NCBI GenBank assembly: GCA_963743045.1
Contig: CAVUOF010000002.1
Span: 108,993-172,992 of the forward strand
DNA: 64,000 nt
Reading direction: 5' to 3'
Source: an uncultured Acidobacteriota bacterium
GTDB taxonomy: Bacteria > Acidobacteriota > Blastocatellia > RBC074
Shown here: positions 437 to 44,831 of the stretch, one piece after another
How positions within the stretch are numbered: the first letter of the stretch is position 1
Layout: each line of letters begins with the position of its first letter
Notes under the pieces: model-generated
Databases searched by the model: none
What the model saw: the letters and a program-made list of their open reading frames with translations, nothing else
What the model was told of the DNA's origin: nothing
Program-made: the position numbers and the translations under genes

Positions 437-452
437 TGGCATATAGATTGCT
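437..452 (+). promoter_or_regulatory. sigma-54 type -24/-12 promoter TGGCATATAGATTGCT upstream of the Hsp20 gene
   Basis: Matches TGGCAC-N5-TTGCW with GG and GC exactly 12 nt apart, about 90 nt upstream of the ATG at 542. Confidence 0.6.
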
Positions 453-541
453 CGATAGTTGTAAGCCCATCACTGGCCAATGGCCGGTCAATAACAGGGT
501 CGCTTTAACAGCAAACGCCAGCAATGGAAAGGAAGGTAGTT

Positions 542-1066
542 ATGCAATCGAAGCAAGCGTTGGAAGCGAAGCAAACCTCCGCCCCAGGTCCGGTCTTTGT
601 CGGATCCGAAAAACTCTCTGAGCGGGCAGTAGAGTTTGCCCAGGCAATTGCCAGACGCGCTTACGAGTTCTTCGAGGGCCGTGGCCGAGCTCTGGGACAC
701 GATCTGGATGACTGGCTTCGCGCCGAATTCGAGTTGAATCGACGTGTTCCCCTGGAACTGAAGGACAACAACAATCAGTTGATCGTCCGCGCGGAAGTGC
801 CAGGCTTCAGGCCGGACGAAATCAAAGTCAGCGTCGAGCCAAATCAGATCATCATCAGCGGAAATACGGAGCAAAGGAAAGAAGGAGAGACGGCGAACGA
901 GGTCTTCTCCGAAATCCAGTCTAATCAATTCTGTCGCCGACTTGGTCTGCCCAAAGAGGTTGATCCTGCGACCGCAGTGGCGACGCTCAAGGACGGTATA
1001 CTAGAACTCACACTGACAAAAATAGCTGCCAGCACACCTACCGAGGTCGAAGTGAAGGTGGCTTAG
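542..1066 (+). CDS. Hsp20/alpha-crystallin small heat-shock protein with a DUF2934-like N-terminal motif
   Basis: ORF 524..1066. The ATG at 542 follows a GGAAAGGAAGG RBS. The alpha-crystallin core is LIVRAEVPGFRPDEIKVSVEPNQIIISG...ATLKDGILELTLTK. The N-terminal motif is IARRAYEFFEGRGRALGHDLDDWLRAE. Confidence 0.85.
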   Translation: MQSKQALEAKQTSAPGPVFVGSEKLSERAVEFAQAIARRAYEFFEGRGRALGHDLDDWLRAEFELNRRVPLELKDNNNQLIVRAEVPGFRPDEIKVSVEPNQIIISGNTEQRKEGETANEVFSEIQSNQFCRRLGLPKEVDPATAVATLKDGILELTLTKIAASTPTEVEVKVA

Positions 1067-1086
1067 CCGGCCGAGTGCCGGCTCTT
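1066..1086 (+). terminator. stem-loop after Hsp20 (GCCGGC-cgagt-GCCGGC followed by tcttg)
   Basis: Perfect 6-bp GC stem immediately after the stop codon. The T-tract is weak. Confidence 0.4.
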
Positions 1087-1377
1087 GCGGACTACACCGC
1101 GAATTTTGTAAGACGTCACCGCGCGTTAATGCTGTGCGAAGTCGTGGCGATGAGCACTTAAACCCTTGCCATCGCCATCGCCAGTGGTGAGGAAGCCTAC
1201 GAGGTTATCGACGCTGCGGATTCCTGTGACTGGAATGAACTGCGCGATGAGGTGGGCGATATCTTTATTAAGAGCTGGTTGGTTGCACGACACTCTTTCG
1301 GCGTGAGAACGAGTCAGCCGAACCTTGCAGAGTGACTCGATGCAACAGCATTTTGCCAGTCTTAAAGACGTCACCCT

Positions 1378-2731
1378 TTATTCGCTTCTCCCTCGGTTTC
1401 GGCCTTCGATCTGCCGAATCTTCAAATAGATAGCCGATAACGCCAAAGAGATCACAATGAGTGAGGCCGCCAGGCCTTTTCGCCTGAATTGAAGTTCGGC
1501 AAGAGCATCCAGTCCTGCTCGATTTGTTTTCTTAGCGACCTCCAGTCCCGGATTGACAGCCGCCCCAAAGAGTTCAGGAGAGAAGCTGTGAATGACGACG
1601 CGCGCGTTAATCAATTTGTCCCGAGCGTCTTTCAGCTCGAACAACGGCCGGCTTACCTCCATTCCTGCTCTGACTGCTCTATCAAGAACGTCCTGTGCTT
1701 CATCGATCTGTCTGGTCAACTGTTCCATCAGTCCGCGCATGCGTTCGGCCGCTTGATGGCCGGCGTCTCCCTGGGTGTGGCAAGTCATGCATTTAGAATT
1801 CTCTCCGGAGCCAAGCATGTCATCGCTTGGCGTTCGGATCTGCATGGTTGCTGTGACAGACCACGCAAGCGGCAAGTTTGGCTGCTTCAAATGGAGTTTT
1901 GTGCGGACTCTTCTGGAAGAGTTCGGACTGACGGCTGTGGCATGTTCCGCAAACGTTCGCGACTGAAGCCACGCCGGGCGGCGCCGCGCCGTGGTTGCCG
2001 TGGCAGTCGTTGCAGGTCGGAGCGGAAAGGTCCTGTTTCTTGAGCAGGGCCTCAGCGTGAACGCTGCCCATATATTTATGCACCTGGTCCGTCGGGATAC
2101 CATAGCTGCGCATATAGTCGGCATTCGCGTGGCATTGGCCGCAAGTCTGAGCGACGTTGGTTGGATAGACTGGCGCGTTGTTGTCGCTCACGGCCCGGAC
2201 TCCGTGAAAGCCGTGACAGCTTATGCAGGTTGCAGGCTTGGTATCGCCTTGCTTTATAAGCTTCCCATGAACGCTCGTGGCGTACTCCGCCTCCTGGTCC
2301 ACCCGCATCGCAGGATTGAACGTCTTCATAAATTCGGCATTGCTGTGGCACTTGCCACAAAACCCGGGTATAGCCTTCGGCGCCGGTTTCGCCACGAATC
2401 CCTTACGCGCATTCATGGCCAACTCCGGGTCGTCCTGGCTCGGGTCGCCACCATGGCAGTCAGCACAGGACAGACCGTGCTGTCGGTGAATGTCGTTCTG
2501 CATTGCCGCGACTGGTGCAGCCAGCTGGTCGCCCATCTGAGTGTGGCACTGGACACAGCTATCCTTGCCCTTCGATGAAGGAACCGCTGCCGCTTTCGGA
2601 ACCGTTTGACTCGCCCCAGTTTTTCCGACCGCCCACGGCGTAAGCAGCCACAGGGCGAGAATGGGCGCCAGCAGTTTGAGCTTTGTGTTACCCGCTCTTC
2701 GACCAACTTGATGAGGTTGACCACCTTCCAT
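1378..2731 (-). CDS. membrane-anchored multihaem cytochrome c (9 CXXCH motifs), frame-broken near 1830
   Basis: ORF 1820..2731 has a signal peptide and 8 CXXCH motifs (CVQCH, CADCH, CGKCH, CISCH, CGQCH, CNDCH, CGTCH, CVVCH). ORF 1378..2124 continues in another frame with CMTCH, a helical region and a C-terminal TM helix ([17 protein letters not shown]). Confidence 0.8.
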
Positions 2732-2743
2732 AAATGTGGCTGC

Positions 2744-3819
2744 CTAAACCAGGTACCCGACTACCGTCATGACCACTATATAAACAATGACGATCAACCC
2801 GATGACTGTGAAGACCGGACTCTTTGTCCCGCGAGCGGCCTTGCGGTCTAGAAAGGGAACCAGCAACCAGAAGAGGCCGCCGATGGCAAAAGCCGTGACG
2901 CCGAGCACGTCGCCATCAACAGGGCCGATCTTCGCCGGCAGAATCTTGAGCGTTTGGAACATGAAGACAAAGAACCACTCAGGCCTGATGCCCGCCGGCG
3001 CTGATGCAAACGGGTCGGCTTTCTCACCTAGTTCCCACGGGAAAATGGCGGCAAGAGCCGCAAGCACAGCAAGCGCGACAAGCCACCCCATGAGATCCCG
3101 CAGCAGGAAATTGGGTACGAACTTCATCGTCTTTAAGCTCTGCCCTTCCAATCCGGGCGGCACGCTCATGCCCTTTCGCTGTACAAGGAGCAGGTGAACG
3201 GAAGAGCAGGAAGGTAGTCAGCGCCGGCAGGACGGCGACATGAAATCCGTAAAATCGTGTCAATGTTGCTCCGGTCACATCATCGCCGCCCCGCAGGAAG
3301 CGCACGAGGAAGTGCCCGATCACGGGAACCACGCCGGCGATCTCCGTCCCAACCTTTGTCGCGAAGAAACGCAAGCTTGTTCCACGGCAGCAAGTACCCG
3401 CTGAAGCCGAATCCAAGAACGATGAACAACAACAGGACCCCGGTTACCCAGGTCAATTCACGCGGCGGGCGGTAGGCCTTCATCAAATAGACACTGAACA
3501 TGTGGACGAAGAGGGTTGCAATCATCAGGTTGGCCGACCAACTATGAATGGATCGAACCAGCCAGCCGAAGTGCACTTCGCCCATGATAAACTGCACGCT
3601 CTCAAATGCTTTTTCGGAGCTTGGCCGGTAATAAAGCAGGAGCAGCGCCCCGGTTACCACCTGCACCACGAACAGGAATAACGTCATCCCGCCGAAGTAA
3701 TACCAGATGCTATGTCGGTGCGAGGGGACCTCTTTCTTTCGTGCGAGCTCCGCCAGCGGCGTCAGGCCCAGACGATCATCGAGCCACGCCAATGTTCCCG
3801 TTCGCCGCATTGGTTCCAT
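2744..3819 (-). CDS. cytochrome b (b6-like N-terminal half fused to a subunit-IV-like C-terminal half), frame-broken near 3375 and 3195
   Basis: Three ORF pieces (3280..3819, 3024..3416, 2744..3169) join into a continuous cytochrome b. Recognisable segments are [57 protein letters not shown] and [10 protein letters not shown]. Confidence 0.85.
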
Positions 3820-3822
3820 CGC

Positions 3823-4272
3823 TCATCCCTTCGACACAACGATCTCGTCGCCACGAATGTTAACAAGGTACTGCTCGAGTGGTTTGGGAGGCGGACCGGC
3901 TATGTTCCTGCCATTCAGATCGTAGTGGCCATTGTGGCACGCACACCAGATGTCTTGCGAGTCGCTACGATACTGGACGGTGCATTGCAAGTGCGTGCAG
4001 GTTGCGGAGAATGCTCTGAACTCTCCATCGGGCGCCTTAACCAGGATGCCGGCCTTTGTGCCAAATTGAAAAATTTTCCCACTGTTCGGCTTCAGCTCGC
4101 TGACTTTTCCCGCTACAACAGTCGACTCCTGAGCTTCGGCGACCTCGGGTGGCACAAGGAATCGCACGATTGGGTACACAATCGAGATCAGAGTCGCGCC
4201 GAGGCTGGTGCCAAGAAGGTAGTTGATAAAATTGCGTCGTGGACCTACCGCCCTGGCAGTCTCTGGCGACAT
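3823..4272 (-). CDS. Rieske 2Fe-2S subunit
   Basis: Carries the CTHLQC and CACHNGH cluster-binding boxes and an N-terminal TM anchor, and abuts the cytochrome b start. Confidence 0.9.
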   Translation of the reverse strand: MSPETARAVGPRRNFINYLLGTSLGATLISIVYPIVRFLVPPEVAEAQESTVVAGKVSELKPNSGKIFQFGTKAGILVKAPDGEFRAFSATCTHLQCTVQYRSDSQDIWCACHNGHYDLNGRNIAGPPPKPLEQYLVNIRGDEIVVSKG

Positions 4273-4447
4273 ACGGCACCTCCTGAATATCGTCTGCAGC
4301 CTGATAGCCGTCGGTCAGTCCGATAGACTTTCACCGGAGCGGAATCTGCGTGAAGAACCGCAGGCGCCACTTTGGGGACGGCTGCACGCCAGCCTGGTAA
4401 CCTCGCATAGCGTGCAAAGGCCGAGCTTGATGACCTGCGAGCAACCG

Positions 4448-4834
4448 CTATTTCTTAAGCGTGCGAATGAACGCGACTATTTCACGGACCTGGTCGGCGC
4501 TCAGACTCGACCCAAAGGCGGGCATTTTGTCTTTGCCCTTTTGAATGATGTTGGACAGCTGGGCATCCGATAGCTTTTGCACTTCGGCAGACCCGAGAGC
4601 TTTTAGACCCATCTTCTTTCCGGTGGGCGTATTGCCACTGCCGTCAGCACCGTGGCAAATGGCGCACTTCGCTCGGAACGTTGCCTCGCCATCGAGCATT
4701 GCCGCGCGAACGACGGGTGCGTGCCCCGGAAGAAGAACCGCCGTTGCCAAAGCGGCGAACCCAAAGGCCGCCATCATTAACCTTTTCAGTTGGGTGGTAA
4801 CCATTTCAGTCAATCTCCTGTTCACCATTCTCAT
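4448..4834 (-). CDS. class I monohaem cytochrome c
   Basis: Signal/TM segment, a single CAICH motif and a distal KMPAF methionine motif. It is the first gene of the Rieske/cytochrome b operon. Confidence 0.8.
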   Translation of the reverse strand: MRMVNRRLTEMVTTQLKRLMMAAFGFAALATAVLLPGHAPVVRAAMLDGEATFRAKCAICHGADGSGNTPTGKKMGLKALGSAEVQKLSDAQLSNIIQKGKDKMPAFGSSLSADQVREIVAFIRTLKK

Positions 4835-5148: not shown

Positions 5149-6760
5149 TCAGCCTGTTTCTGCCGGGTCTCGCCGTCGGAGCCAATCGGTCGCCATTCGG
5201 GCAAGTGCCCAAAGACTGCCGGCAGTATCCATCGGAAGAGATTCATTGTCGTTCATTGCGCATTGAGGTACGCCCTTCGTCTGCTGCCGCAAGTAAATTT
5301 CCCAAGTGGCATCAGAAAGGCTGCCTCCACGCGCGGCGCGCTCGGCGAGCCTCTGCCGCACAAGTTCCGGCGCCAGCCGGCACTCGATCATTCTCCATTC
5401 GGCGCCAGAGACTCGCGCCATCTCGCGCACCATGGCTCTATCCTCGGCACGCTGAAAGGTGGCATCCAACACTACTGCGCCATCCTCACTGAGTCGTGTG
5501 CGCGCCCATTCGATCATCGTCTGGTAGGTCCGATGATTGGCTTCAGCGGTGTATACCCCTTGCCCATAGCTTGCAGGCTCCTTGGCCGGACCGAAGAGTG
5601 ATTGCCGAACGGCGTCGGCAGAAATCACGCGCAGCCCGAGCTCGCCCGCGACGGCTCGCGCCATCGACGTCTTTCCTGTGCCCGAAAGCCCCGTAACCGT
5701 GATGACCGTGGGCCGCCGCAACCGCGATGCGTACCGCCGCGCCAGCTCGAAAAACTGCCGCGCGCGCTCCGCCGCCGCGGCCTGTTCTTCTACGCTGAAT
5801 TCAGCCTCGTTCAGCCGGAAGCTAAGCACCTTGCCACGCACAAACGCGCGGTAACAGCGGTAGAACGGCAGCAGAGTGAAAAAGTCTTTGTCGCCGGCAC
5901 GTCGCTGGTAACTTTCAGTGAAGAAGTACCCGAGATCGGGCCGGCCTCGCACGTCCAGGTCCATCGCCAGGAAAGCCACTTCGCTCGCCACATCATCACA
6001 CCGGAACCGGTCGTTGAACTCGATGCAGTCGTAGATACAGATGGCATCATCCCTCACACAAATGCTCTCACAACGCACGTCGCCGTGCCCGTCAACGACG
6101 TGGCCTTCACGCACGCGTCGTTCGAATAGGTCGATCCTCGCCAGCCAGTCGTTCACCCATTCGCGAATTGATCGGAAGGTTGCGCCACTGATTGTGCGGC
6201 CGATGAAGGCTGTGGTCTGAGTGAAATTCTCTTCCCAGTTATGGCGAATCTCCGTTGGGCTGCCCCACTTTGCCACGTCAGGCGCGCGTCGGCAGCCCTA
6301 TGGAATTCGAACAGCCGGTCGGCGAGCGGTCAAGCATCGCTTCCGTCACTTCACCGCGAGCCACTAGTCGATCGAGCATTCGGTCGTCCGGCAGTCGTTT
6401 CATCCAGACGCAGTAGTCGACAAGCTTGCCAGCGCGGCCCGAAAATCGGATATGTCCGTCGACCTCGATTACGCTGCCGACGCCAATGTACGTGTCCGGG
6501 CAGAGGCGCCGATTCAAGCGTACTTCGTCTTCGCAGGCCCGTTGCCGCTTTTCTAACGTCGTATAATCGAGAAAGCCGAAATCAACCGGCTTTTTCAGCT
6601 TGACGACATGCTTGCGCCCTAAGAGCAGCACCGAGATGTGTGTCTGAATGACTTTGATCGGCAAGTCATCTGGCGCCCACTCCGGGGCGCAGCGTAGCTG
6701 CTCGATCATCGCCCACCACGACTTCAAATCGGTCTTTTCTTGCGCAGGCACTCCGCTCAC
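5149..6760 (-). CDS. bifunctional aminoglycoside-phosphotransferase-like / P-loop (AAA_33-like) ATP-binding protein, frame-broken twice near 6280-6310
   Basis: The N-terminal piece (ORF 6278..6760) contains IQTHISVLLLGRKHVVKLKKPVDFGFLDYTTLEKRQRACEDEVRLNRRL. The C-terminal piece (ORF 5149..6276) contains the Walker A VTGLSGTGKTS. A third frame supplies LADRLFEFHRAAD between the two pieces. Confidence 0.7.
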
Positions 6761-6775: not shown

Positions 6776-7441
6776 TCAAAATAACGAAATCCTTAGATTG
6801 TCTCTGACGGCCACGACTCCCGGGGCATGGCTGACAGCGCCTACAATTGCCCGCTTCTCCTCCCATGAGTTAATCGAACCGGCGAGCGTTACCGTTCCAT
6901 CGTTCACCTTGACGTCAATGCGGTCAGCCTCGCGATCTGCACGCCGCTCGAGTGCATCCTCAATTACGAACTTTATGTCATTCGGGGCAACTTTCACTGG
7001 ATTGACGACCAGTTTGTTGGTTACACCACTGACGCCATCGCAAGTCGCGGATGGCTTTCTCTGCGTCTTCACGCTCGCTGAGATAGGTTACAGCACCTGT
7101 CAGTGTCACCCAGCCGTTCGCGACCGTCGAGCGAATCTGTTGATCGGGAACAAGCACGTTCCATTCGAGCGCCTCACGTACCGCTTGCGCAATCTCAGTG
7201 TCGGTTCGCGTAAAACTGCCGGTATTTGGACCTTGATGTCGTCGGCTACATCCAGCACGCCGCTTACGCGGTGCGCTGCCTCAAGTGCAGCCAGTTTCTT
7301 GGCGTAGCTGCTTACCGTGCCAGTAAGTGTGACGACTCCCTCATCCACTTCTACTCCAACTTCCGTCTCTTCGACGCGAGTATCCCAGCGTAGTTCCTTC
7401 AGGACATCGTGATGGATTTGTTCATCGGTTTTCGATCTCAT
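6776..7441 (-). CDS. BON-domain protein (OsmY-like, three BON repeats), frame-broken near 7230 and 7070
   Basis: The ATG at 7441 follows an AAGGAGG RBS. BON signatures repeat as VEVDEGVVTLTGTVSS, VANGWVTLTGAV and VKVNDGTVTLAGSINS. It is a paralog of 9230..9896. Confidence 0.8.
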
Positions 7442-7481: not shown

Positions 7482-7497
7482 AGCAACCACCGTGCCG
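7482..7497 (-). promoter_or_regulatory. sigma-54 type promoter (reads CGGCACGGTGGTTGCT on the minus strand) upstream of the BON gene
   Basis: Correct GG-N10-GC spacing, about 40 nt upstream of the ATG at 7441. Confidence 0.65.
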
Positions 7498-7751
7498 TGA
7501 GAATCGGCTGCCGAAACCCCGCAATGAGGCGACGTTTGCTAAAGTTCTGCGGAACATTGCGCACCACCGGGTTGGGAGGTTGGGGATTACGCGCATTGCC
7601 AGTCGCTCGCAATTGGTGGTGCACTTCCATGAGCAGAATGTTGACATTCCACGCATTGGCTGAACTTGCCGGCAACCCGCCCAATATAAGGCGCCAGGTA
7701 AAGCAGGCTGATGTCGTTCGTCATCCCATAGAGTCAAGTCACACGGCAGGC

Positions 7752-10401: not shown

Positions 10402-10417
10402 CGCAATCGGTGTGCCC
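10402..10417 (-). promoter_or_regulatory. sigma-54 type promoter (reads GGGCACACCGATTGCG on the minus strand)
   Basis: Correct spacing, about 75 nt upstream of the ATG at 10326. It would drive the hypothetical-BON-USP gene string. Confidence 0.65.
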
Positions 10418-11078
10418 AGCGGACAGTTGGTCAGGCTGCGCATCGATCGTTATGGTTGCGAGCTCAGATTCAGAGTTGTTCAGATAGTTGATGCGCCGGT
10501 CCCCCCAGGTTCGCCGCGTTCTTAAACCATCAACTCTCGAAGGCGATCCTTGCTGCGATAGGAGTCAATCGCGAATCGAATACCGAAGACCTTCCATTCG
10601 TAGAACTACGCACCTCGTGGGGAATATTTCGCAAGAGCGTAAGCAGTTCTGTCATCGCCTTCGATGACATAAGCATGGGGGCCGTTTTTGAAACTGAGCG
10701 ATCGTAAGGGCTGGATACTCAGGTGACATCGCACTCCACTCACCTGATCATTCGTTGCGACATTGTGGATCTGACTCAGTGTCAATAATCTGGAACAATA
10801 GTTGCCCATGGCGATGCCGATCGGCAGACGATGGCGTTAGCCGGACGAGCGTGGTATCGGCTGTCCTGGCCGGTCGGCTTTACCGCGCAAGGACTCTGTG
10901 CAGAAGGTCGATTCAATCGTCGAACGAAGCGCCATGGCGCTGCATTCGGGAGCGACATCCGGGTACCTGTCGATCAACAAACAATCAAATTGATGATTAT
11001 CGCCATCAGGATCGGTCACCTTGTCGAGCCGACCGGTCATTAGCAACTGAGCCTCGCTCTCATCAGGTATAGGCAATT

Positions 11079-12170: not shown

Positions 12171-12189
12171 GAAGAGGACGGAGGTTTAC

Positions 12190-14279: not shown

Positions 14280-14285
14280 ATCAAC

Positions 14286-14661: not shown

Positions 14662-14686
14662 CTCTTACGATTAGCGAGGTAGCTGA

Positions 14687-15815: not shown

Positions 15816-17231
15816 ATGCCAAAAGACAAAGTACTCGTCGTCGATGACGACTCGGCTATCCGCTACACCTTGACCGAGGCACTGCGTGCCTGGGGCTACG
15901 AACCGCTGGATGCCCCCACGGTTGCAGCTGCCCTGGAAGCTTTTGATTCGGAGCAGCCTGCGGCGGTGTTGCAGGATATAAACCTGCCAGACGGATCCGG
16001 CCTCGACGCGCTCATCGAATACAAGAAGCGGCAGCCTCAGGCGATTGTCATTATCATCACCGGCGAAGTGAATCTTGATGCCACAATTGCGGCGTTGCGG
16101 GGTGGCGCGTACGACTTCATCAGCAAGCCCATCAGGCTCGCTGAACTCCAGGTCACAATCCGCAACGGTATCGAAGCCGGGAGACTCCGTCGCGAAGTCC
16201 GGTATTTGCGTCGCCATCAGGAAAAAAGGCTCAGCTTCGATCAAATCGTTGGCACATCCGAGTCAATGAATGAAATGATCACGCTGGCTAAGAAGATCTC
16301 GGCAAGCGAGGTATCGTCCGTGTTATTGATTGGTGAAAGCGGAACCGGCAAGGATGTTGTAGCCAAGGCCATACATTACGGCTCGCCGCGCGCGGATCAA
16401 CCCTTCGTTGCGATAAATTGTGCAGCTATACCCGGAACGCTGATCGAGACCGAACTCTTCGGTCACGAGAAGGGTGCTTTTACCGACGCTCGAGCAAAAA
16501 AGGAGGGTCTGTTCGAGCAAGCACAGGGCGGAACTTTCTTCCTGGACGAGATATCCTCACTCGAGCTGGGTCTCCAGGCAAAACTGCTGAGGGTGCTCGA
16601 GGAGGGAACATTCCGCCGAGTTGGCGGATTGAGGGACCTGCCACTCGATGTGCGGATAATAGCCGCGTCGAATCGAGACCTTAGACTTGACAGCGAGGCC
16701 GGGCGTTTTCGGCTGGACCTTTACTACCGGCTTTCGGTGATACAAATCGATCTGCCGCCGCTCCGCGAACGTGGCGACGACGTATTGCTACTGGCAAACT
16801 ACTACATCGCTCACTTCAGCGAACGCTTGAAAAAACGCGTCAGCAACCTGACGCCGGAGGTCGAGGATATATTCCGCCGGTACCATTGGCCTGGCAATGT
16901 CCGTGAACTGCGGAACGTCATCGAGCGGTTGATGATTCTGGAGGATTCAGATTCGATCACGGCGACCTGGCTGCCGCGCGACCTGATGAAACGAGACCAG
17001 GCTGCCAATATACCCACCGTCGTCGCTGCTGCGCCAACAACCCAAGGCGTGCCTCCGTCACTTCGATTGCCTGATGGCGGGATCAATCTCGAACAGCTCG
17101 AACTGGCACTGGTCAGACAGGCTCTTGAGAGAAGTGGCGGCAATCAAACGCGCGCTTCAGAATTGCTTGGAATCTCGCGCGATCAGCTCCGTTATCGTCT
17201 GAAGAAGATTGACGACTCGCTGGCGCAGTAG
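15816..17231 (+). CDS. sigma-54-dependent response regulator (REC + AAA+ + Fis-type HTH, NtrC family)
   Basis: Receiver domain, Walker A GESGTGK, GAFTDA loop, and the C-terminal [19 protein letters not shown]. Confidence 0.92.
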
Positions 17232-17332: not shown

Positions 17333-17348
17333 CGGCACAGGCATTGCT
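17333..17348 (+). promoter_or_regulatory. sigma-54 type promoter CGGCACAGGCATTGCT upstream of the tandem USP gene
   Basis: Correct spacing, about 50 nt upstream of the ATG at 17395. Confidence 0.65.
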
Positions 17349-18808: not shown

Positions 18809-18927
18809 TTTGCATCGAGCGCGGCGAAAGATTCGCAAAGAACGCAAGACCACGAAACAGAGAATTACCGTTCTCCTTCGTGGTCCTGTGGTCTTTGGTC
18901 CACCATTCGCAGTTGCGTCTGATAGTT

Positions 18928-20478
18928 ATGGCAGATGATCAGCAGAACGCCGCGTCCTTGCGGATGAGTGAGGCCAGACTGGCCGGAATTGTCGCGTCGG
19001 CAATGGATGCAATCATCACTGTCGACGAGAGCCAGCGCATTGTCCTCTTTAATGCATCGGCCGAGAGAATCTTCCGCTGCCCGGCAAAGGACGCTTTAGG
19101 CCAGAGCCTGGACCGTTTTCTTCCGGACCGCTTTCGCATCGCACATCGCGAACACATCCGTGTATTCGGCGAGACGAACGTGACTCAGAGGACAATGGGA
19201 AGCGCGCGCACCCTTTACGGACTGCGTTCCGATGGCGAAGAGTTTCCGATCGAGGCCTCAATTTCACAAATTGACTCCGAAGGCCACAAGTTCTTCACCG
19301 CAATCGTCCGCGATATCAGCGAGAAGAAACGTCTCGAAGCCCAGTTCCTGCGGGCGCAGCGAATGGAGAGCATAGGCACTCTGGCCAGCGGTATCGCGCA
19401 TGATCTGAACAATGTGCTCTCTCCCATCCTGACCGCAATCGAGCTGCTGCAGATGCGCTTCACCGATGAAAGCAGCCAGCGCCTGCTCAACATCCTTCAG
19501 ACCAATGCCGTCCGCGGCGGCGAAATGATCAAGCAGGTGCTCTCGTTTGCGCGTGGTGCCGAAGGCAATTTCACACCCCTGCAACCGACACATCTGATCA
19601 AGGAGATCATTAAGATCCTCGCCGACACTCTGCCAAAACATATCGAGATCACCTTCTCGATTGATCCGGACTTGTGGCAGGTTTCCGGCGATGCGACTCA
19701 ACTGCACCAGGTTCTGATGAACCTCTGTATCAACGCGCGTGACGCGATGCCGCATGGCGGAAGCCTGCGGATCGAGGCAGAGAATGTTGAGATAGACGAA
19801 CACTCCGCGCGAATGGCAGTTGATGCCAAACCCGGAAAATACGTCTCTGTCGGAGTTGTTGACACCGGGCTCGGCATAGCCGAGCAGAATCTGAGCAAGA
19901 TCTTCGACCCATTCTTCACGACCAAGGACTATGGACAGGGGACAGGCCTGGGTTTATCGACTGTTGCCGGTATCGTTCGCAGCCACGGCGGCTTTCTGAA
20001 TGTCTACAGCGAAGTCGGCAGGGGTGCGAAATTCAAGGTCTACTTGCCGGCCATCCAATCGGCTGAGGCAACAGCCGCACGGTCAGTGCCGCACCAATTG
20101 CCCTCGGGCAACGGCGAAATGATTCTGGTCATTGACGATGAACATGCAATCCGGGAAGTTGCGAGGGAGATCTTGAACACCTTCGGCTATCAGGCTCTGA
20201 TTGCAAATGACGGTGCCGACGCGATTGCAGTCTTTGCTTCACACAAAGATCAGGTTCGTCTTGTGATAACGGACATGATGATGCCGTACATGGATGGCCC
20301 GGCTACGATACGAGCGCTGAGGAGGCTCGATCAGAGTGTCAGGATCATTGCCACCAGCGGGCTGAAGGCCGATGACAAGATGGCCGAAGCGTCGCAGCTA
20401 GGCGTTAAGACCTTTCTTCCGAAGCCGTACACTGCAGAGACTCTGTTAAACACGATAGCCGCTGTCTTGAAGGAATGA
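18928..20478 (+). CDS. PAS-domain hybrid sensor histidine kinase / response regulator
   Basis: PAS domain, H-box [10 protein letters not shown], HATPase N/G boxes, and a C-terminal receiver (ILVIDDE...DMMMPYMDG). Confidence 0.9.
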
Positions 20479-20944: not shown

Positions 20945-21090
20945 CAATCAGTCGACGGCTTTCAACCGGCTGGCTTTCGGGGCCTGACCTGCTGCGTAAT
21001 GTTCCCCAGCCTCGAGAGGAATTTGCGCGGGAAAACCCACAGCGGGAGGATGATTTGGCAGGTTAGCAGGCGAAAGCGCAGCGCAACGGG

Positions 21091-21106
21091 TGGCACAGAG
21101 CTTGCC
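21091..21106 (+). promoter_or_regulatory. sigma-54 type promoter TGGCACAGAGCTTGCC upstream of the hemerythrin and citrate synthase genes
   Basis: Near-perfect consensus, 46 nt upstream of the ATG at 21151. Confidence 0.75.
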
Positions 21107-26638: not shown

Positions 26639-26654
26639 TGGCACACCACGTGCT
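26639..26654 (+). promoter_or_regulatory. sigma-54 type promoter TGGCACACCACGTGCT upstream of the small Cys-containing protein
   Basis: Correct spacing, about 70 nt upstream of the ATG at 26725. An identical copy is at 33320..33335. Confidence 0.6.
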
Positions 26655-28854: not shown

Positions 28855-28870
28855 AGCAATGATCATACCG
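28855..28870 (-). promoter_or_regulatory. sigma-54-like promoter (reads CGGTATGATCATTGCT on the minus strand) upstream of the USP gene
   Basis: Correct GG-N10-GC spacing, 47 nt upstream of the ATG at 28809. The -24 element is GGTAT rather than GGCAC. Confidence 0.5.
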
Positions 28871-30930: not shown

Positions 30931-30946
30931 TGCAAGCGTTGTGCCG
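30931..30946 (-). promoter_or_regulatory. sigma-54 type promoter (reads CGGCACAACGCTTGCA on the minus strand) upstream of the USP-BON pair
   Basis: Correct spacing, about 130 nt upstream of the ATG at 30804. Confidence 0.6.
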
Positions 30947-33250: not shown

Positions 33251-33319
33251 AGTCCTGGAAGCATGTGACTCAATTCTTATGCCAGCCTAATGACGCCGAA
33301 AGGGATGCCCATTCGCGTC

Positions 33320-33335
33320 TGGCACACCACGTGCT
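33320..33335 (+). promoter_or_regulatory. sigma-54 type promoter TGGCACACCACGTGCT (duplicate of 26639..26654)
   Basis: Identical 16-mer, about 65 nt upstream of the ATG at 33400. Confidence 0.6.
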
Positions 33336-33399
33336 CCAATAGTGTGAGAGGGCGGATACCAGGCGACTTTCCAGTAAGAAATTTGGGGAGGTGATAGTC

Positions 33400-33789: not shown

Positions 33790-33916
33790 GGACCCGGAAA
33801 ATTCCCCTATAGAGCGGGATTCTACGCACCCACCTGAACAGTAGCCGCAAGAAAGCGCACAGAGAGTTCCATGAGGTCTGTTATCTTTCACGTTCCGGTG
33901 ACCTATAATTGCTCTC

Positions 33917-38626: not shown

Positions 38627-41301
38627 ATGTCACAACTCTCGCATTGGACAATGACCGCGATGATCGCAGTTGTGCTGGGCTTCAGCCTCCTGCTTGCGCT
38701 ACCCGTGTTCCGAGCCGAACCTGAGGCTGCGGCTTCTATATCAGCTTCGGCAAATCCATCCCGTGAGCGAATCTCCTTCAACGCCGACTGGCGCTTTCAG
38801 AAGGGAAATCCCGGCCGGATTTGAGGGCCAGCTCTCCTACGACAAGATCAAAGGCTGGGTGACGTCGACCGGCTCGGATTTTGGAGCAAGCTCTTCGAGG
38901 CCCGCAGGAAATCCCGGCAGCGACGTTCCCTATGCGAAGCGCGATTTCAACGATGCCGCCTGGCGAAAGCTTAATCTGCCTCACGATTGGGGCATCGAAG
39001 GTCCGTTCGGCCAGGAGAATCCTGGCGAGACAGGCAAGCTGCCATGGTGGGGCGTCGCCTGGTACCGAAAGCACTTCACGGTGCGAGCCGACGAGAAAGA
39101 TCGACGCCTCTATCTCGACATTGATGGAGCCATGGCCTATGCGAGTGTCTGGCTCAACGGGCGGTTTGTCGGCGGATGGCCATACGGATATGCATCGTTC
39201 GAGCTCGACCTGACGCCTGAGATTGCTTTCGGCGGAGACAACGTCCTTGCCATCCGCCTCGACAATCCTCCCGATTCCTCGCGCTGGTATCCGGGCGGCG
39301 GGCTCTACCGGAACGTCTGGCTCGTCAAGACCTCTCCGATTCACATCGGCCATTGGGGAACCTATCTGACTACGCCGGAGGTGAGCGAGGCACAAGCGGT
39401 CGTCCATCTTAAGGAGACCGTCGAGAATCAATCCAATGGTGCCGCAGAGGTTTCGGTCAAGACAGAGATATACGAGATTGACGACAGAGGATCGAGGCTG
39501 AGGACGCCCTCGGCAGCGATTGCCACTACGGTCAGTATTGCCGCCGGCGGCCGCGAAGTACTGGATAGAAGCCTCAAAGTGGGCAGTCCAAAACTCTGGA
39601 GCACCAGGAGCCCCCATCTCTACAAGGCGGTAACGACAGTGGCGCGAGGCGGCGCGATACTCGATGAGTACGAGACCACGTTTGGGATTCGCACGATCAA
39701 GTTCGATGCGGATAAAGGATTCTTCCTCAATGGCGAGCTCGTCAGGATCAACGGCGTCTGCGATCACCATGACCTTGGCCCTCTGGGCTCGGCCCTAAAC
39801 CTGCGCGCGCTCGAGCGGCAGATCGAGATCCTCAAGGAGATGGGCGTCAATGCAATCAGGACAAGCCATAATCCGCCCGCGCCGGAGCTGCTCGATCTCT
39901 GTGATCGAATGGGCATCCTCGTCATGGACGAAGCATTCGACTGCTGGAAGCGAGGCAAGAAGAAGAACGACTATCACCTGCTGTTTGATGACTGGCACGA
40001 GAAGGACCTTCGAGCCCAGGTGCGTCGCGACCGCAATCACCCGAGCGTGATTCTCTGGAGTACGGGCAACGAGATTGGTGAGCAGCGCACACCCGAAGGT
40101 GCCGGTATCTCAAAGGATCTTGCGCGCATTGTCCACGAAGAGGATCCGACAAGGCCGTCAACCGCAGGATGCAATGACATCAACGCCGGATACAACGGAT
40201 TTCAGGCGACCGTCGATGTCTTCGGCTACAACTACAAGCCGGGTGAATACGGAAAATTCCGCGAGAAGAATCCCTCGATACCGCTCTATGCGAGCGAGAC
40301 TGCCTCATGCGTGAGCTCGCAGGGGCGAGTACTTCTTCCCGGTCACCGACAATCAGGACCAGGGCAAGGCCGATTTCCAGGTGAGCTCGTACGACCTCTA
40401 CGCGCCGCGCTGGGCGATGCCGCCGGACCGGGAATTCCGAGGACAGGACGAATTCCCGTTCGTCGCCGGCGAGTTCGTCTGGACTGGCTTCGACTATCTT
40501 GGTGAGCCGACGCCCTACGGCAGCGATGCGACCAATCTGCTCAATTTCTCTGATCCGGCTGAGCGAGCCCGAATGGCCAAAGAGCTGGAGGCGCTCGGCA
40601 AGATCAAGGTTCCGTCGCGCAGCTCATACTTTGGGATTGTGGATCTCTGCGGATTCAAGAAGGACCGCTTCTACATCTATCAGGCGCGCTGGCGACCAGA
40701 GCTGCCGATGGCGCATATCCTCCCGCATTGGAACTGGCCTGACAGGGTCGGCCAGGTTACGCCGGTACATGTCTATACCAGCGGCGACGAGGCAGAGCTC
40801 TTTCTCAATGGCCGTTCGCTTGGGAGAAAGAAGAAGGAGCGCCTTCAATACCGGCTGCGCTGGGACGATGTGAAGTACGAGCCGGGTGAGCTCAAAGTGG
40901 TCGCCTACAAGGACGGCAGGAAATGGGCCGAGGACGTCATGAGAACGGCGGGCCCTGCGGCGAAGCTCTTGTCGGCTGCCGACCGCTCGACGATTGGCGC
41001 GGACGGCAGCGACCTCTCCTTCATCACAGTCACCGTAGCCGATGCCAGAGGCATCCTCGTGCCGCGCTCGAAGAACAGGCTCAGCTTCGAGGTCAGCGGT
41101 CCGGGCGAGATCGTGGCCGTCGACAATGGCGATGCTACGAGCCACGAGTCGTTTCAGTCGAAAGAACGCAACGCCTATAACGGGCTCTGCCTTGTGATTG
41201 TCAGGTCGATAGCCGGCAAGCCTGGAAAGATCCGGCTGACTGTGAAATCTCCCGGACTGGCAGCCTCGTCGGTGACGATCGCAACCGAACGCTCACATTG
41301 A
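38627..41301 (+). CDS. glycoside hydrolase family 2 (beta-galactosidase-like), frame-broken near 38815 and 40320
   Basis: Signal peptide, then FNADWRF, WYRKHF, NAIRTSHNPP, WSTGNE and FVWTGFDYLGEP. Confidence 0.85.
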
Positions 41302-41386: not shown

Positions 41387-44073
41387 TCACGCCTTCTCAA
41401 GGCGCACTGCCGTGACTTTGTACTCCGGCGCGCCCGTAAACCGGTCACGATGCGGGCTGGTAACGCGGTTCAGAAACACATCCGCAGTGTGAAAGGTGGC
41501 AAAGAGCTCGCCTGGTTTGATAACGGAACTCAACTTGAGCGGGAGAACCGCTTCACCGTGGCGGCTTCGCACTCGCACTCGCTCACCGTCCTCAAAGCCC
41601 AATGCCGTCGCGTCGCCGCGAGAGATATCCAAACAGTCTTCCGGCCGCAACACCCTGTTCCTCGTGCGCATAGTCATGGTACCGGCATTGAACTGATGCA
41701 GAGTCCTGCCAGTTACGAGCAGGAACGGATAGTTTGCGTTGGTTGTCTCGGGTGTCGGCGCGTACGTCGATGCACCGGAGCGCAGCGCGCTCGCCTGTCG
41801 GGAATCTTTCTGCATGAAGCACCTGAGTCCCGGGATGATCCTCTCCTGGGCAAGGCCATTGCAGGCCGGCCCGTTCAATGCGTGGATAGGTGATACCTCG
41901 GCCTGCTTTCCACACGGCACGCACCTCGTCCCAGATCTCCTCCGGCGTGCGAAAATCAAAGAACTGCTCCTTGCCCATGGCTCGTGCGATGGCACAGATG
42001 ATTTCCCAGTCCGGCTTCGATTCTCCCAGGGGATCGATGACTTTGCGGACACGCTGGATTCGCCGCTCGGCGTTCATGAAGGTTCCGTCCTTCTCGAAGG
42101 ATGAGGCGGCTGGGAGAAAGACGTGGCCGAACTCGCGTGCCGTCTCGTTGAGAAACATGTCCTGGACGATCACCAACTCAAGCGCTCCAAGGGCGCGCCG
42201 CGTGGCATGTGCGTTCGCATTCGTCAAGAACACATCGTATCCAATGGCCCAGAGTCCTTTGAGGCTCCCTTGCTCTGCCGCATCCATCATCTGCATGCAG
42301 ATTGAGACCATTCCCTGCAGGCACGTCTGCGCGCCAGACGCTGGAAATCGAACTCCGGCCGTCAGCAAGAGAAACGGATCCGGTCAGATGCCCTGGATCA
42401 CAGCCCATGTGCGCGGCACCCTGGACGTTGTTCTGACCTCGCAACGGATTGATTCCCGTTCCCGGTTTGCCGACATTGCCAGTGAGCAGCGCAAGGTTGA
42501 CTAAGCACATCACACCTTCCGTGCCTTGCGTGTGTTCAGTCATCCCCAGGCCGTGAACGCTCAAGGCCGGCCTGGCAGTAGCATACATCCGTGCGGCCTG
42601 ACGAATCGCGCTCGGCTCGACTCCGCAGATGCTCGCCGTCTTTTCCGGAGCATATTGACGGACGAACTCGCGAAACTCATCCCAGCCGGCGAGGCGTTCC
42701 TGCACGAATGCGTCGTCCTGGAGGTGCTCCTCCACTATCGTGCAAGCCATTGCATTGAGCAGTGGTACGTTCGTCCCCGGGCGAAGCTGAAGGTGAATAT
42801 CTGCGTAATCGGCGAGCTCGATCCGGCGCGGATCGATGACGATCAGATGAGAGCCTCGCAGGGCTGCCTGTTTGATGCGCGCGCCGACAATCGGATGATT
42901 CTCGGTCGTGTTGGTGCCGCAGACGAGGATCGTCAGAGCACGCTCGATGTCATCGAACGAGTTGGTCGCTGCGCCTGTGCCGAGCATTGACTTCATGGCA
43001 ACAGCGGTCGGGGCATGGCAAACGCGCGCGCAGCAATCAACGTTGTTGGTTGCGAGAACAACGCGTGCGAACTTTTGGGCCAGATAGTTCTCTTCATTCG
43101 TGGCTCGCGCCGAACCGAGCACGCCGATACTGTCAGGCCCATTCCGCTCGACAATAGACCGCATCCGCTCGGCGGTGAAAGAGATCGCTTCTTCCCACGA
43201 GGCGCGGCGCCACTCGCCATCCTCGCGAATCATCGGCGTGGTCACCCGATCATTGGCATAGACGAACTCGAAGCTGTAGCGGCCTTTCACGCAAAGGTGT
43301 CCCTTGCTCACCGGGGCGCCGAGCGAGGGTTTGATCCCGACAATTCGTTGTTCGCGGGTGCCGACCTCCATCTCGCACCCGGTGCCGCAGTAGGCACAGG
43401 TCGTCCTGGTCCATTCCAGAGGTGTCCCGAGCGAAAGCAGGGATTGGTCTTCGAGTGCTCCGGTCGGACAGGTGTCCACGCAGGCGCCACAACTGACACA
43501 GGAACTTTCAAGCAACGTAGTTCTCGAGTCGGGCACGATCATTGTCTCAACGCCACGGTTCAATGTTTCCCACACGAACTGTCCCTGCACCTCACGGCAA
43601 ATCCGCACGCAGCGGTAACAGTAAATACATCGTGACATGTCTACGTGAATGTAAGGATGCGAATCGTCAATGATAGTCGGGTCAGTAGCGCCACGGCAGT
43701 GGTGATCGAGCCCATAGGCGCGCAGGTAGCGGTGAAACGGCTTTTCGGCGAATTGTTGTTGCGGTTCGGCCGGATATCGCTGAGCCAGCATGCTCAGCAA
43801 CCCGCGCCGCTCGTCTTCGAGCTCGGCTGTATGCGTTTCAATCTCCATGCCGTCGGCAAGCGGAGTGGTACAGGCGGTGACCGGACCTGGCCTGCCCGCC
43901 ACCTGCACGAGACACAATCGGCACTGACCGCAAGGCGCGAGACGCTCGTCGTGGCAAAGCGTGGGTACCTCAATCCCAATCGCCTGCAGACCGTCAAGGA
44001 TTGTCATCCCCTCGGTGAACTCATGTTCCTGATGGTTGATTGAGACTCGAAGATATGCCGGTTTTGAGAACAC
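41387..44073 (-). CDS. formate dehydrogenase alpha subunit (2Fe-2S / 4Fe-4S / molybdopterin; cysteine type), frame-broken near 42310 and 41760
   Basis: N-terminal ferredoxin motifs (CGQCRLC, CIYCYRCVRIC, CVSCGACVDTCP, CAYCGTGC), the active-site region CCARVCHAP, and the C-terminal PEYKVTAVRLEKA. The GTG start at 44073 follows a GGAGGG RBS. Confidence 0.88.
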
Positions 44074-44117
44074 GATCCCTCCAGGCAGCTCGAATCTCGA
44101 TGCGTTGCTTGAGAACG

Positions 44118-44597
44118 CTAGGCGCTCGCCGAGAGGGCACAACCATGGTGCTCACAAATGGCTTTGTAAGTATTGACAACATCGGCGTACGAAAGCTCCG
44201 TTTTCCCGCCAGCGGCCTTGCTCTCCCGAGCCTCAATCGTGATGTCATTCATCGAGAGAATGCCCTGCAGTACGCCATCTCGATCGACAACCGGGAGCCG
44301 TCGAACTTTATTCTCTCTCAGGGTGACGAGCGCGGACTCAATGTCATCGTCCAGAGCGCAGGAATAAACCTGCCCCGAAACTACTTCGGCGACACTGATT
44401 TCAGACGGTAACTGATTCCTGGTCGCGGCGGCGATGGCAATATCTCGGTCGGTAATCATGCCAACCACTTTGCCTTCTTTGTCCGTCACCGCGAGTACGC
44501 CACAATCGTTCTCCCACATTAGCCCTCCCGCAACCGCCAGGTTGGTGTCTGGCGAGCAGGACTTGACGCTTCCGGTCATTAAGTCTTGAACTTTCAT
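44118..44597 (-). CDS. CBS-pair domain protein
   Basis: Two CBS motifs in 159 aa, with an AAGGAGG RBS. It lies directly upstream of the formate dehydrogenase gene. Confidence 0.85.
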   Translation of the reverse strand: MKVQDLMTGSVKSCSPDTNLAVAGGLMWENDCGVLAVTDKEGKVVGMITDRDIAIAAATRNQLPSEISVAEVVSGQVYSCALDDDIESALVTLRENKVRRLPVVDRDGVLQGILSMNDITIEARESKAAGGKTELSYADVVNTYKAICEHHGCALSASA

Positions 44598-44646
44598 ATT
44601 TCCTCCTTGGCCCTGGTCTTTTCAGCAGATAGCACTGGTAGTGAAG

Positions 44647-44662
44647 AGCAATGGCCGTGCCG
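44647..44662 (-). promoter_or_regulatory. sigma-54 type promoter (reads CGGCACGGCCATTGCT on the minus strand) upstream of the CBS-formate dehydrogenase operon
   Basis: Near-consensus match, 50 nt upstream of the ATG at 44597. Confidence 0.7.
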
Positions 44663-44815
44663 GAGATACTCCCCTACTTTATAGGCGAACCTCAAGTATA
44701 TTGGGTAAAATTACTGCACTTTGCGGGATAGCACGCAACGACCGAACGCCTCAGCCAGTCGTGTTGTAATAGCCGCGTCCCGCGCGCATAAGCAAGATCG
44801 CCGCTCGGAACGTTC

Positions 44816-44831
44816 CGGCACATGTCTTGCT
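44816..44831 (+). promoter_or_regulatory. sigma-54 type promoter CGGCACATGTCTTGCT upstream of the NDH-2/SQR-like gene
   Basis: Near-consensus match, about 110 nt upstream of the ATG at 44940. A weaker tandem match, TGGTATGTCAGCTGC, lies at 44836..44850. Confidence 0.7.

Follow-up and report, generated by a model that had tools for sequence, protein, structure and literature searches.

A 64-kb stretch of DNA from an uncultured bacterium of the Blastocatellia (hereafter the window, meaning the whole stretch analyzed) carries eleven sequences resembling sigma-54 promoters in front of stress and redox genes. Are these sequences genuine promoters, and do they answer to one activator? Acidobacteria rank among the most abundant bacteria in soil, and little is known of their gene regulation; Blastocatellia are a common and abundant soil lineage within them. 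A literature search found no published work tying together sigma-54, USPs and Acidobacteria.

Sigma-54 elements are concentrated in front of genes

The initial annotation had listed eleven 16-mers of the TGGCAC-N5-TTGC type, placed 45-130 nt before start codons. All are present on the strand and at the position given below, each once except TGGCACACCACGTGCT, which occurs in two copies, at 26639 and 33320. The GG-N10-GC spacing is exact at 11/11 sites, and start codons follow at 40-127 nt, each preceded by a Shine-Dalgarno-like sequence. The gene annotations also hold (Hsp20, BON, USP, PNPOx, hemerythrin, citrate synthase, GCS2/CBS, CBS, FdhA-like and SQR-like Pyr_redox_2).

437..452, + strand: sigma-54 element TGGCATATAGATTGCT (16.1 bits), 71 nt before an Hsp20/DUF2934 gene (524-1066)
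7482..7497, - strand: sigma-54 element CGGCACGGTGGTTGCT, heading a four-gene operon (BON 7106-7441, BON 6776-7072, hypothetical 6278-6760, AAA_33 kinase-like 5149-6276)
10402..10417, - strand: weak sigma-54 element GGGCACACCGATTGCG (9.35 bits), before a hypothetical gene (119 aa, 9967-10326), then BON (9230-9673) and USP (8344-9126)
17333..17348, + strand: sigma-54 element CGGCACAGGCATTGCT, before a tandem USP (17395-18342, broken into three ORFs in the window) and PNPOx (18352-18705)
21091..21106, + strand: sigma-54 element TGGCACAGAGCTTGCC, before hemerythrin (21151-21705), with citrate synthase (21715-23025) and GCS2/CBS (23105-25030) further on
26639..26654, + strand: sigma-54-like element TGGCACACCACGTGCT, before a 120-aa Cys-containing protein (26716-27078)
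28855..28870, - strand: non-consensus sigma-54-like element CGGTATGATCATTGCT, 45 nt before a USP (28453-28809)
30931..30946, - strand: sigma-54 element CGGCACAACGCTTGCA, before a tandem USP (29884-30804) and BON (29404-29835)
33320..33335, + strand: duplicate of the 26639 element, before a paralogue (33391-33789)
44647..44662, - strand: sigma-54 element CGGCACGGCCATTGCT, before a CBS pair (44118-44597) and an FdhA-like gene (41592-44142, split)
44816..44831, + strand: sigma-54 element CGGCACATGTCTTGCT, before a Pyr_redox_2 gene (SQR-like/NDH-2-like, 44959-46152) whose true start is probably later than annotated

Since 26639 and 33320 are copies within a duplicated segment of ~0.7 kb (26402-27117 and 33102-33791, 86-97% identical), the eleven promoters amount to ten independent sites. 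Scored with an approximate sigma-54 matrix of our own, ten of the listed elements reach 12.9-16.1 bits and 10402 reaches 9.35 bits. The consensus is poorly matched at 10402 and 28855 (GGTAT), and 26639/33320 have GTGC at -12.

We compared the sites with shuffled and non-facing sequence, along the lines proposed in the initial annotation, and they exceeded both. At a threshold of 12.9 bits the whole window holds 13 matches, against 2.75 +/- 1.6 in 200 dinucleotide shuffles (largest 9). Ten of the 13 fall in 5,894 gene-facing intergenic positions and three in the other 122,076 (69-fold; Fisher 1e-11), a comparison in which three gene starts had been corrected with the site positions already known. 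Intergenic DNA not facing any gene contains only one match in 16,514 positions, and coding sequence holds three equally good matches, at 21781, 22420 and 58547. A match at 15353 (TGGCTGGTGTTTTGCT, 14.6 bits), 448 nt before the activator gene, was left out of the count because its -24 region is atypical and no gene start is nearby. Beyond 45 kb of the window, the matrix scan found no high-scoring intergenic site. The gene rpoN is absent from the 64-kb window.

The local density had originally been called unusual on the grounds that well-studied bacteria have only tens of sigma-54 promoters in a genome. This yardstick is weak, as enhancer-binding protein numbers differ widely between bacteria, with 37 in Desulfovibrio vulgaris and many in Myxococcus (PMC4641369).

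A dyad lies upstream of most promoters

Inspection by eye had revealed no common activator site. Motif discovery on the upstream regions, which had been suggested as a check, uncovered a shared 16-bp dyad with the consensus TGCGGAAnnTTCCGCA, 50-200 nt upstream of the -24/-12 element at at least five promoters (437, 7482, 10402, 17333 and 21091), with weaker versions at 44647/44816 and 30931. It is often paired with a second, weaker site ending in CCCA, 20-33 bp nearer the promoter. No convincing shared dyad was found upstream of 26639/33320 and 28855, which may answer to another activator.

339-354 and 369-386, strand unassigned: candidate sites AGCGGCAATTTCCCCA and GTGTGCAAGATCACCCAA at the Hsp20 promoter, with a matrix match at 222-239 (- strand)
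7547..7564, - strand: dyad GTGCGCAATGTTCCGCAG, 51 nt upstream of the 7482 -24 element, the best in the window (23.7 bits), with one mismatch to the palindrome
10617..10634, - strand: dyad TTGCGAAATATTCCCCAC, ~200 nt upstream of the 10402 element
17254-17268 and 17277-17291, + strand: tandem candidate sites S1 TGCGCATTTTTCCGC and S2 TCGCAAAATCACCCA, between the activator and USP genes
20992..21009, + strand: dyad CTGCGTAATGTTCCCCAG, 83 nt upstream of the 21091 element
31029-31046 (- strand) and 31006-31023 (+ strand): weaker dyad-like pair CTGTGCGATCTTGCCCAA and CAGTGTGTTTTCACCCAC at the 30931 promoter
44721-44738 and 44701-44718, - strand: dyad-like pair TTGCGTGCTATCCCGCAA and TGCAGTAATTTTACCCAA, common to the divergent promoters 44647/44816

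The de novo search on the upstream regions returned GTGCGCAATATTCCGCA with a log-likelihood of 64.3, against a largest value of 63.8 in 80 control sets. As this beats the controls only narrowly, we put weight on leave-one-out tests and on conservation. When each promoter was left out in turn and compared with 447 control blocks, 0/447 controls matched 7482, 10402 or 21091, and p was ~0.011 for 437 (222 site), 0.058 for 44647/44816 and 0.067 for 30931. The test failed for 26639/33320 (p 0.17), 28855 (p 0.81) and 17333 (p 0.16), the last of these although it is phylogenetically conserved. Across the window the pattern TGCGNNNTNTTCCSC occurs just four times, each time upstream of a listed sigma-54 site and in identical orientation. 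The palindrome with up to three mismatches has 13 matches where 4.7 are expected, and 5/13 lie upstream of listed sites.

The window encodes an NtrC-type activator and a haem-PAS hybrid kinase

15816..17231, + strand: complete NtrC-type activator (REC, Sigma54_activat, HTH_8)
18880..20478, + strand: hybrid histidine kinase (FixL-type haem-PAS, HisKA, HATPase_c, C-terminal REC), the proposed sensor
28884-29033, + strand: HTH remnant of a second activator

The initial annotation had described both a complete activator and the remnant of another. Pfam matches bear out the former (Response_reg 2.8e-21, Sigma54_activat 8e-66, HTH_8 1.8e-14); the latter is present, but its position needed correction and it faces away from the USP gene. 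The sigma-54-contacting GAFTGA loop is the variant GAFTDA in the window activator and in 120/120 orthologues, and GAFTDA is listed among the variants thought to retain activity (PMC4641369). We propose this activator as the candidate binder of the dyad.

AtoC, NtrC, PEP-CTERM PrsR and ZraR have the same REC, AAA+ and HTH_8 architecture, and the window activator scores below the curated NCBIfam cut-off for each of them (AtoC 419/714, NtrC 407/559, PEP-CTERM 391/503), so that we do not file it as AtoC or NtrC. Its neighbors are unrelated to acetoacetate or nitrogen metabolism. Orthologues carry the JGI label 'AtoC'. An exact-sequence look-up of the activator gave no match, and a contig scan with it returned only relatives of at most 48% identity from many phyla, none of them carrying the dyad close to a sigma-54 match.

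The kinase PAS domain matches the FixL structure 8js5 (E 6.6e-19) and also the DosP haem domain. The haem histidine is His89 in 9/9 orthologues, and Arg110 is kept in the 6/6 that cover it. The domain is thus predicted to bind haem, and a FixL-type haem-PAS with an invariant haem histidine suggests an oxygen or redox signal. The kinase is not filed as FixL because its NCBIfam FixL score, 172 bits, is below the curated cut-off of 850, though it may work in a FixL-like way. No Hpt protein for the hybrid kinase is in view.

The promoter module is conserved in Blastocatellia

The cassette of activator, tandem USP, PNPOx and PAS hybrid kinase is kept in Blastocatellia contigs. In the closest of these the activator is 91% identical, and synteny is the same through hemerythrin and citrate synthase. 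We aligned the gap between the activator and USP genes from 16 related Blastocatellia loci, whose coding DNA is 64-83% identical: S1, S2 (~22 bp apart, center to center) and CGGCAC-N5-TTGC are invariant or nearly so. In a close relative (L208) the divergent CBS/SQR-like promoters 44647 and 44816 are kept as footprints, with an identical 44647 element, CGGCACATGCCTTGCC at 44816 and a conserved dyad-like block. In L082, the orthologue of the USP gene behind 28855 (62% identical) is preceded by TGGCATCGGGATTGCA, 44 nt from its start, and homologues of the 119-aa protein downstream of 10402 have both dyad and promoter in four loci (L091, L095, L135, L137). Among these confirmations, L137, L082, the L208 footprints and L210/L211 were not chosen by pattern.

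A metagenome scan for the dyad plus promoter, covering spacings of 48-78 nt only and therefore missing modules like 21091 (83 nt) or 10402 (~200 nt), showed a spacing peak at 63/64 nt (26/80, binomial 3e-12). The genes downstream include tandem USP, PNPOx, 119-aa homologues, APH+AAA_33, CMD, Crp/Fnr and M50-CBS. Since the pattern was built from the window's own sites, recovery of orthologues speaks for conservation, not independence. The picture also has gaps. Activator orthologues in L081 and L086 are without an adjacent USP cassette, no promoter was found directly upstream of the BON homologues in L105, which are probably internal operon genes, and SQR-like homologues (~59% identity) stand in differing contexts, with no site in L209.

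Altogether, positional enrichment and conservation in relatives support the reading of these promoter-like sequences as real, mostly conserved sigma-54 promoters.

A candidate circuit and its alternatives

We consider it likely that this is a real sigma-54 promoter cluster and that most of it forms one enhancer-dependent stress regulon under the two-component system encoded among its genes. The single regulon envisaged by the initial annotation thus fits most sites, which share the dyad, and does not extend convincingly to 26639/33320 and 28855. In the proposed mechanism, the kinase would sense oxygen, another haem ligand or redox state through its haem-PAS domain, with low oxygen as the presumed signal, and would phosphorylate the NtrC-family activator. 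The activator would then oligomerize on the 16-bp dyad, often together with the CCCA-ending site, and its ATP hydrolysis would open the closed complex of the sigma-54 holoenzyme. Predicted targets are Hsp20, several BON and USP proteins, PNPOx, hemerythrin, citrate synthase and GCS2/CBS, as well as the CBS protein with FdhA, the SQR-like flavoprotein, the AAA_33 kinase and small proteins of unknown function. The kinase gene may be co-transcribed. Because the best-conserved of the target promoters is that of the activator-USP-PNPOx-kinase cassette, the kinase is probably under feedback from its own system.

Other explanations were weighed. The promoters could be real and belong to several unrelated activator regulons, their clustering reflecting a sigma-54-rich lineage and a stress-gene island. 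The missing dyad at 26639/33320 and 28855, the second-activator remnant and the good sigma-54 matches without a dyad in related loci (e.g., L082 and L086) would all fit, as would the many enhancer-binding proteins that soil bacteria can have (PMC4641369). We nonetheless find this unlikely, given that a specific dyad in the same orientation is common to at least five promoters and that other genomes, too, have the dyad-plus-promoter module in front of these gene families. That the matches are accidental, GG-N10-GC turning up by chance in GC-rich intergenic DNA, and have no promoter function is largely refuted and highly improbable: while the matrix is approximate and coding sequence yields its three equal matches, the gene-facing enrichment, the excess over shuffles and the exact conservation of elements inside otherwise diverged intergenic DNA all argue against it.

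The dyad might instead be bound by another regulator, such as a Crp/Fnr-family protein, a repressor or a nucleoid protein. Binding by the adjacent activator is deduced from sequence, Crp/Fnr-family genes lie near or downstream of modules in relatives, and the dyad is unlike the proven NmpR site. Against this, the layout is typical of enhancers, both in its distance from the -24 element and its strict pairing with sigma-54 promoters; the tandem sites are about two helical turns apart, as in enhancers, and in at least 16 loci the activator gene has the best-conserved copy of the dyad right beside it. Another binder therefore seems improbable to us, and we retain the adjacent activator as the candidate.

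Relation to known hypoxia and dormancy systems

The closest characterized system is NmpRSTU of Myxococcus, from which the sensor and site differ here. In Myxococcus xanthus, the NtrC-like NmpR was experimentally proven to act from tandem sites at a sigma-54 promoter; its hypoxia-induced regulon includes CBS, USP and hemerythrin targets, receives input from a haem-based oxygen sensor and extends to its own operon (PMC11841059). The window likewise combines an NtrC-type regulator, sigma-54 promoters and upstream tandem dyads, here read from sequence, and its targets include a CBS protein, USP and hemerythrin. Nmp, however, uses the globin-coupled kinase NmpU, which feeds a multi-step relay through NmpT and NmpS, whereas we find a single FixL-type haem-PAS hybrid kinase and, across the window, none of the globin-coupled type. 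NmpR recognizes GCGCA-N5-TGCGC, its sites being separated by 14-15 bp; the dyad here is GCGGAA-N2-TTCCGC, at ~22 bp center to center. The phylum also differs, and the target set here further includes Hsp20, BON, PNPOx, citrate synthase, FdhA and the SQR-like protein; a cbb3 oxidase was not found in it. With a PAS-type kinase and a different dyad half-site and spacing, we do not assign the locus to NmpRSTU.

The sensor recalls FixL of the FixL-FixJ(-FixK) systems of rhizobia and Caulobacter: it is a haem-PAS kinase that keeps the proximal histidine and the Arg220 equivalent, with FixL as its best solved-structure match. In some relatives a Crp/Fnr-family gene downstream of the module recalls FixK. 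FixJ is a LuxR/NarL-type regulator acting with sigma-70, whereas the kinase's partner here is a sigma-54 AAA+ activator.

The DosR/DevR hypoxia and dormancy regulon of Mycobacterium is rich in USPs and also contains Hsp20 (HspX), the CBS-pair protein Rv2626c, PNPOx-like proteins and the APH/AAA-like Rv2004c, and a USP is encoded in the regulator's operon. DosR itself is of the NarL type and works at sigma-70 promoters, with the GAF-haem sensors DosS and DosT. The resemblance to DosR/DevR, and to OsdR of Streptomyces, is one of regulon content only, the regulators having no sequence relationship. Because the content of the regulon parallels the DosR and NmpR hypoxia regulons, it suggests convergent selection of one protective gene set under different kinds of regulator.

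We put forward tentatively, at somewhat short of even confidence, that the window represents a Blastocatellia-wide low-oxygen/dormancy regulon based on an undescribed pairing, in which a FixL-type haem-PAS hybrid kinase works with an NtrC-type sigma-54 activator that recognizes GCGGAA-N2-TTCCGC. The analysis offers a concrete circuit of sensor, activator, predicted binding site and about ten operons, which could explain how slow-growing Acidobacteria cope with oxygen levels that fluctuate or pass into a resting state. With its specificity, the dyad-plus-promoter module can be sought directly in metagenomes, so regulon membership could be mapped across uncultured relatives and, if the proposal is true, the predicted cis-code would let the regulon be read from metagenomes. 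Its gene content would then have converged with the DosR and NmpR regulons, and the same problem would have been solved independently a third time.

Probable sigma-54 promoters upstream of stress and redox genes

All eleven 16-mers proposed by the initial annotation as sigma-54 (-24/-12) promoters (437, 7482, 10402, 17333, 21091, 26639, 28855, 30931, 33320, 44647 and 44816) are present at the stated positions, and downstream of each come a Shine-Dalgarno-like sequence and, at 40-127 nt, a start codon. They amount to ten independent sites, because 26639 and 33320 sit in a duplicated ~0.7 kb segment. Scored with a matrix that we approximated from published consensus frequencies, ten sites reached 12.9-16.1 bits and the site at 10402 reached 9.35 bits; the consensus quality claimed for the set did not extend to 10402 and 28855 (GGTAT), which are weak matches.

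The window holds 13 matches of at least 12.9 bits vs 2.75 ± 1.6 in dinucleotide-preserving shuffles (n = 200). The 5,894 gene-facing intergenic positions, defined as lying 20-200 nt before a gene on the same strand, contain ten of the 13 vs three in the other 122,076 (69-fold, Fisher 1e-11), an enrichment somewhat inflated by the correction of three gene starts with the sites already known and far too large to come from that correction. Intergenic DNA not facing a gene contains only one such match, and the matrix scan found no intergenic match of this score between 45 and 64 kb. Given the excess over shuffles and the gene-facing enrichment, coding and random sequence do not yield such matches at similar density, and this check does not refute the promoter reading. 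A further match, TGGCTGGTGTTTTGCT at 15353-15368 (+), scores 14.6 bits and lies 448 nt 5' of the activator gene; relatives have a 65-aa ORF at this place, and it is probably not a promoter.

A shared dyad upstream of most promoters

A common activator site had escaped inspection by eye, and motif search found one at most promoters. Trained on the 260 nt that precede each -24 element, expectation-maximisation converged on GTGCGCAATATTCCGCA; its best matches anywhere in the window are found 59-209 nt before the proposed promoters, nearly all in the same orientation. The motif likelihood (64.3) was higher, by a narrow margin, than that of every control set (80 sets, shuffled or random; mean 53, s.d. 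3.5, largest 63.8). More telling is a leave-one-out comparison with 447 control blocks, in which the tested promoter was excluded from training: no block matched the scores of 7482, 10402 and 21091, values were 0.011 for 437, 0.058 for 44647 and 0.067 for 30931, and 17333, 26639 and 28855 were not significant. The simple pattern TGCGNNNTNTTCCSC occurs four times in 128 kb (both strands), each time upstream of a proposed site, with gaps of 52, 65, 84 and 202 nt. The palindrome TGCGGAANNTTCCGCA, clearest in sequences of other genomes, matches the window 13 times with up to three mismatches (4.7 ± 2.3 expected); five of these matches are upstream of proposed sites, including 339-354 before Hsp20.

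Palindrome-like matches also occur 34 nt apart in the multihaem cytochrome gene region, at 1902-1917 (three mismatches) and 1936-1951 (two mismatches), and the window scan found no sigma-54 match near this pair. A large inverted repeat at 20815-20944 (48-nt arms, 96% complementary, 34-nt loop) separates the dyad of the hemerythrin promoter from a small ORF; it may be a terminator, the relic of a mobile element or a structured RNA.

Conservation in related loci

The activator has orthologues at 71-91% identity that are assigned by their sources to Blastocatellia or Acidobacteria. On contigs that encode them, the activator is grouped with a tandem USP (~315 aa), PNPOx and a PAS hybrid kinase in a conserved cassette, and the closest contig also matches the window in its flanking cytochrome genes and in the pairing of hemerythrin with citrate synthase. 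We aligned the activator-to-USP intergenic region of 16 loci whose coding DNA is just 64-83% identical to the window, and three blocks were invariant or nearly so.

Conserved features of the cassette
15816-17231, activator: REC, Sigma54_activat and HTH_8 domains (Pfam)
S1, conserved block: TTGCGGATTTTTCCGC
S2, conserved block ~22 nt downstream of S1: TCGTAATTTTCCCCA
Sigma-54 element, conserved block: CGCGGCAC-N5-TTGC
18880-20478, kinase: PAS-HisKA-HATPase-REC hybrid

Since S1, S2 and the element are conserved to this degree, 17333 is the best-supported promoter, although it was not significant in the leave-one-out comparison. Its 5' leader (17361-17393) carries a conserved AGGAGG and then a 7-8 bp hairpin, at the same position in 11 related loci (ACATTGC...GCAATGT in the window, CGTTGCG...GCGACG elsewhere, with compensatory changes at two base pairs), which might control translation or be part of an N-terminal extension of the USP. 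In contig L208, which encodes a 94% identical SQR-like protein, the divergent CBS/SQR arrangement is kept; its intergenic DNA is rearranged except for the dyad pair and the -24/-12 element on either side of it. The sites are best read as real, mostly conserved sigma-54 promoters.

We then searched metagenome contigs with TGCGNNNTNTTCCSC-N(48-78)-GGCACNNNNNTTGC and recovered at least 120 stretches. The dyad-promoter gap was 63 or 64 nt in 26 of the 80 matches listed (~5 expected under uniform spacing, binomial 3e-12). Genes downstream among the matches listed encode tandem USPs (at least 11), PNPOx, an APH+AAA_33 protein, a CMD/AhpD-like protein (at least about seven loci), Crp/Fnr regulators, an M50-CBS protease, DUF6920, a Zn-dependent alcohol dehydrogenase and an MFS transporter, and three contigs (L091, L095, L135) have homologues of the window's 119-aa protein (9967-10326). 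As the pattern was derived from the window's own sites, these matches show conservation and regulon breadth, not independent discovery. Other cases were not pattern-selected: L137 encodes a homologue with 58% identity to the 119-aa protein and has AGGCACGTTTATTGCA 55 nt before its start; L082 has an orthologue of the USP at 28453-28809 with TGGCATCGGGATTGCA 44 nt before its start (45 nt in the window); and in L210 and L211 palindrome and promoter stand upstream of a PAS-kinase/SQR operon and of three further genes.

The base preceding GG, canonically T, is mostly C or A: eight of the 11 window sites have C or G there, and the counts for the 63/64-nt metagenome class are C13/A12/T1. A non-T base at -26 may be a lineage or regulon peculiarity. 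Crp/Fnr-family genes lie downstream of or beside dyad-plus-promoter modules in four loci (L104, L150, L081, L082), which by analogy hints at a two-tier cascade like FixLJ-FixK.

Target genes

Pfam agreed with the gene annotations first proposed.

Predicted targets
Hsp20 with DUF2934
Five BON proteins and five USP genes
PNPOx, hemerythrin, citrate synthase and GCS2/CBS
CBS pair and FdhA-like molybdoenzyme
Pyr_redox_2 flavoprotein (JGI label sulfide:quinone oxidoreductase)
AAA_33/zeta-like kinase
Several proteins without known family

The duplicated segment (26402-27117 and 33102-33791, 86-97% identity) holds a promoter and a 120-132-aa protein without known family. Many genes that are single and intact in relatives are split here across two or three ORFs in different reading frames, which suggests assembly indel errors or widespread pseudogenes.

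Split genes
17395-18342, tandem USP (311-319 aa in relatives)
2744-3819, 12136-14279, 23105-25030, 38670-41301 and 41592-44142, further spans
Examples with intact size in relatives: cytochrome b (357 aa), a 693-aa protein, GCS2-CBS (629 aa), GH2 glycosidase
FdhA (872 aa, intact in L208)

Respiratory genes flank the regulon at 1378-4834 and 11079-15316 (multihaem cytochrome c, Rieske/cytochrome b, NapC/NirT-like, cbb3-type cytochrome c). In the closest relatives these genes keep their synteny with the activator, and they may form a respiratory module tied to the same physiology.

A candidate haem-sensing two-component system

The sigma-54-contact loop of the activator (residues 220-225) reads GAFTDA instead of GAFTGA, as in 120 of 120 closest orthologues; this variant is regarded as functional and is known from Desulfovibrio DVU2106 (PMC4641369). 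The best solved-structure matches of the kinase PAS domain are the haem-binding PAS of FixL (8js5, E 6.6e-19) and E. coli DosP. Both its proximal histidine and its Arg220 equivalent align with those haem domains and are invariant in the orthologues covering them (His 9/9, Arg 6/6), which supports, without proving, oxygen or another haem ligand as the signal. The activator reached no curated NCBIfam equivalog, and the kinase fell below the NCBIfam FixL cut-off.

In the proposed circuit, the kinase would be switched on by low oxygen or a related haem signal and would phosphorylate the activator; the latter would then assemble on S1/S2 and drive open complexes at the sigma-54 promoters, with putative positive feedback through the cassette. 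Because most promoters share the activator site, they probably form one regulon under this adjacent system, as initially proposed; 26639/33320 and 28855 may instead belong to another activator. The HTH remnant of a second activator is indeed present and, as a correction, lies on the + strand: 28884-29033 encodes a C-terminal HTH_8 fragment of a sigma-54 activator that adjoins the 28855 element, with no AAA+ domain upstream of it.

Relation to known systems

Our literature search found no paper on such a system in Acidobacteria. The mechanism is ordinary, but for a soil lineage that is abundant and poorly studied it offers a first stress circuit that can be tested. The mycobacterial DosR regulon has similar content under an unrelated type of regulator. 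Among experimentally defined systems, NmpRSTU of Myxococcus xanthus (PMC11841059) comes closest; the window's predicted system is similar to it in its NtrC-like regulator, candidate tandem activator sites and putatively autoregulated sigma-54 promoter, and in having a CBS protein, USP and hemerythrin among its predicted targets; Nmp induction by hypoxia would parallel the low-oxygen signal that we infer here. However, NmpRSTU belongs to another phylum, its sensor is globin-coupled with a multi-step relay, and its site, GCGCA-N5-TGCGC, is unlike the one described here (PMC11841059).
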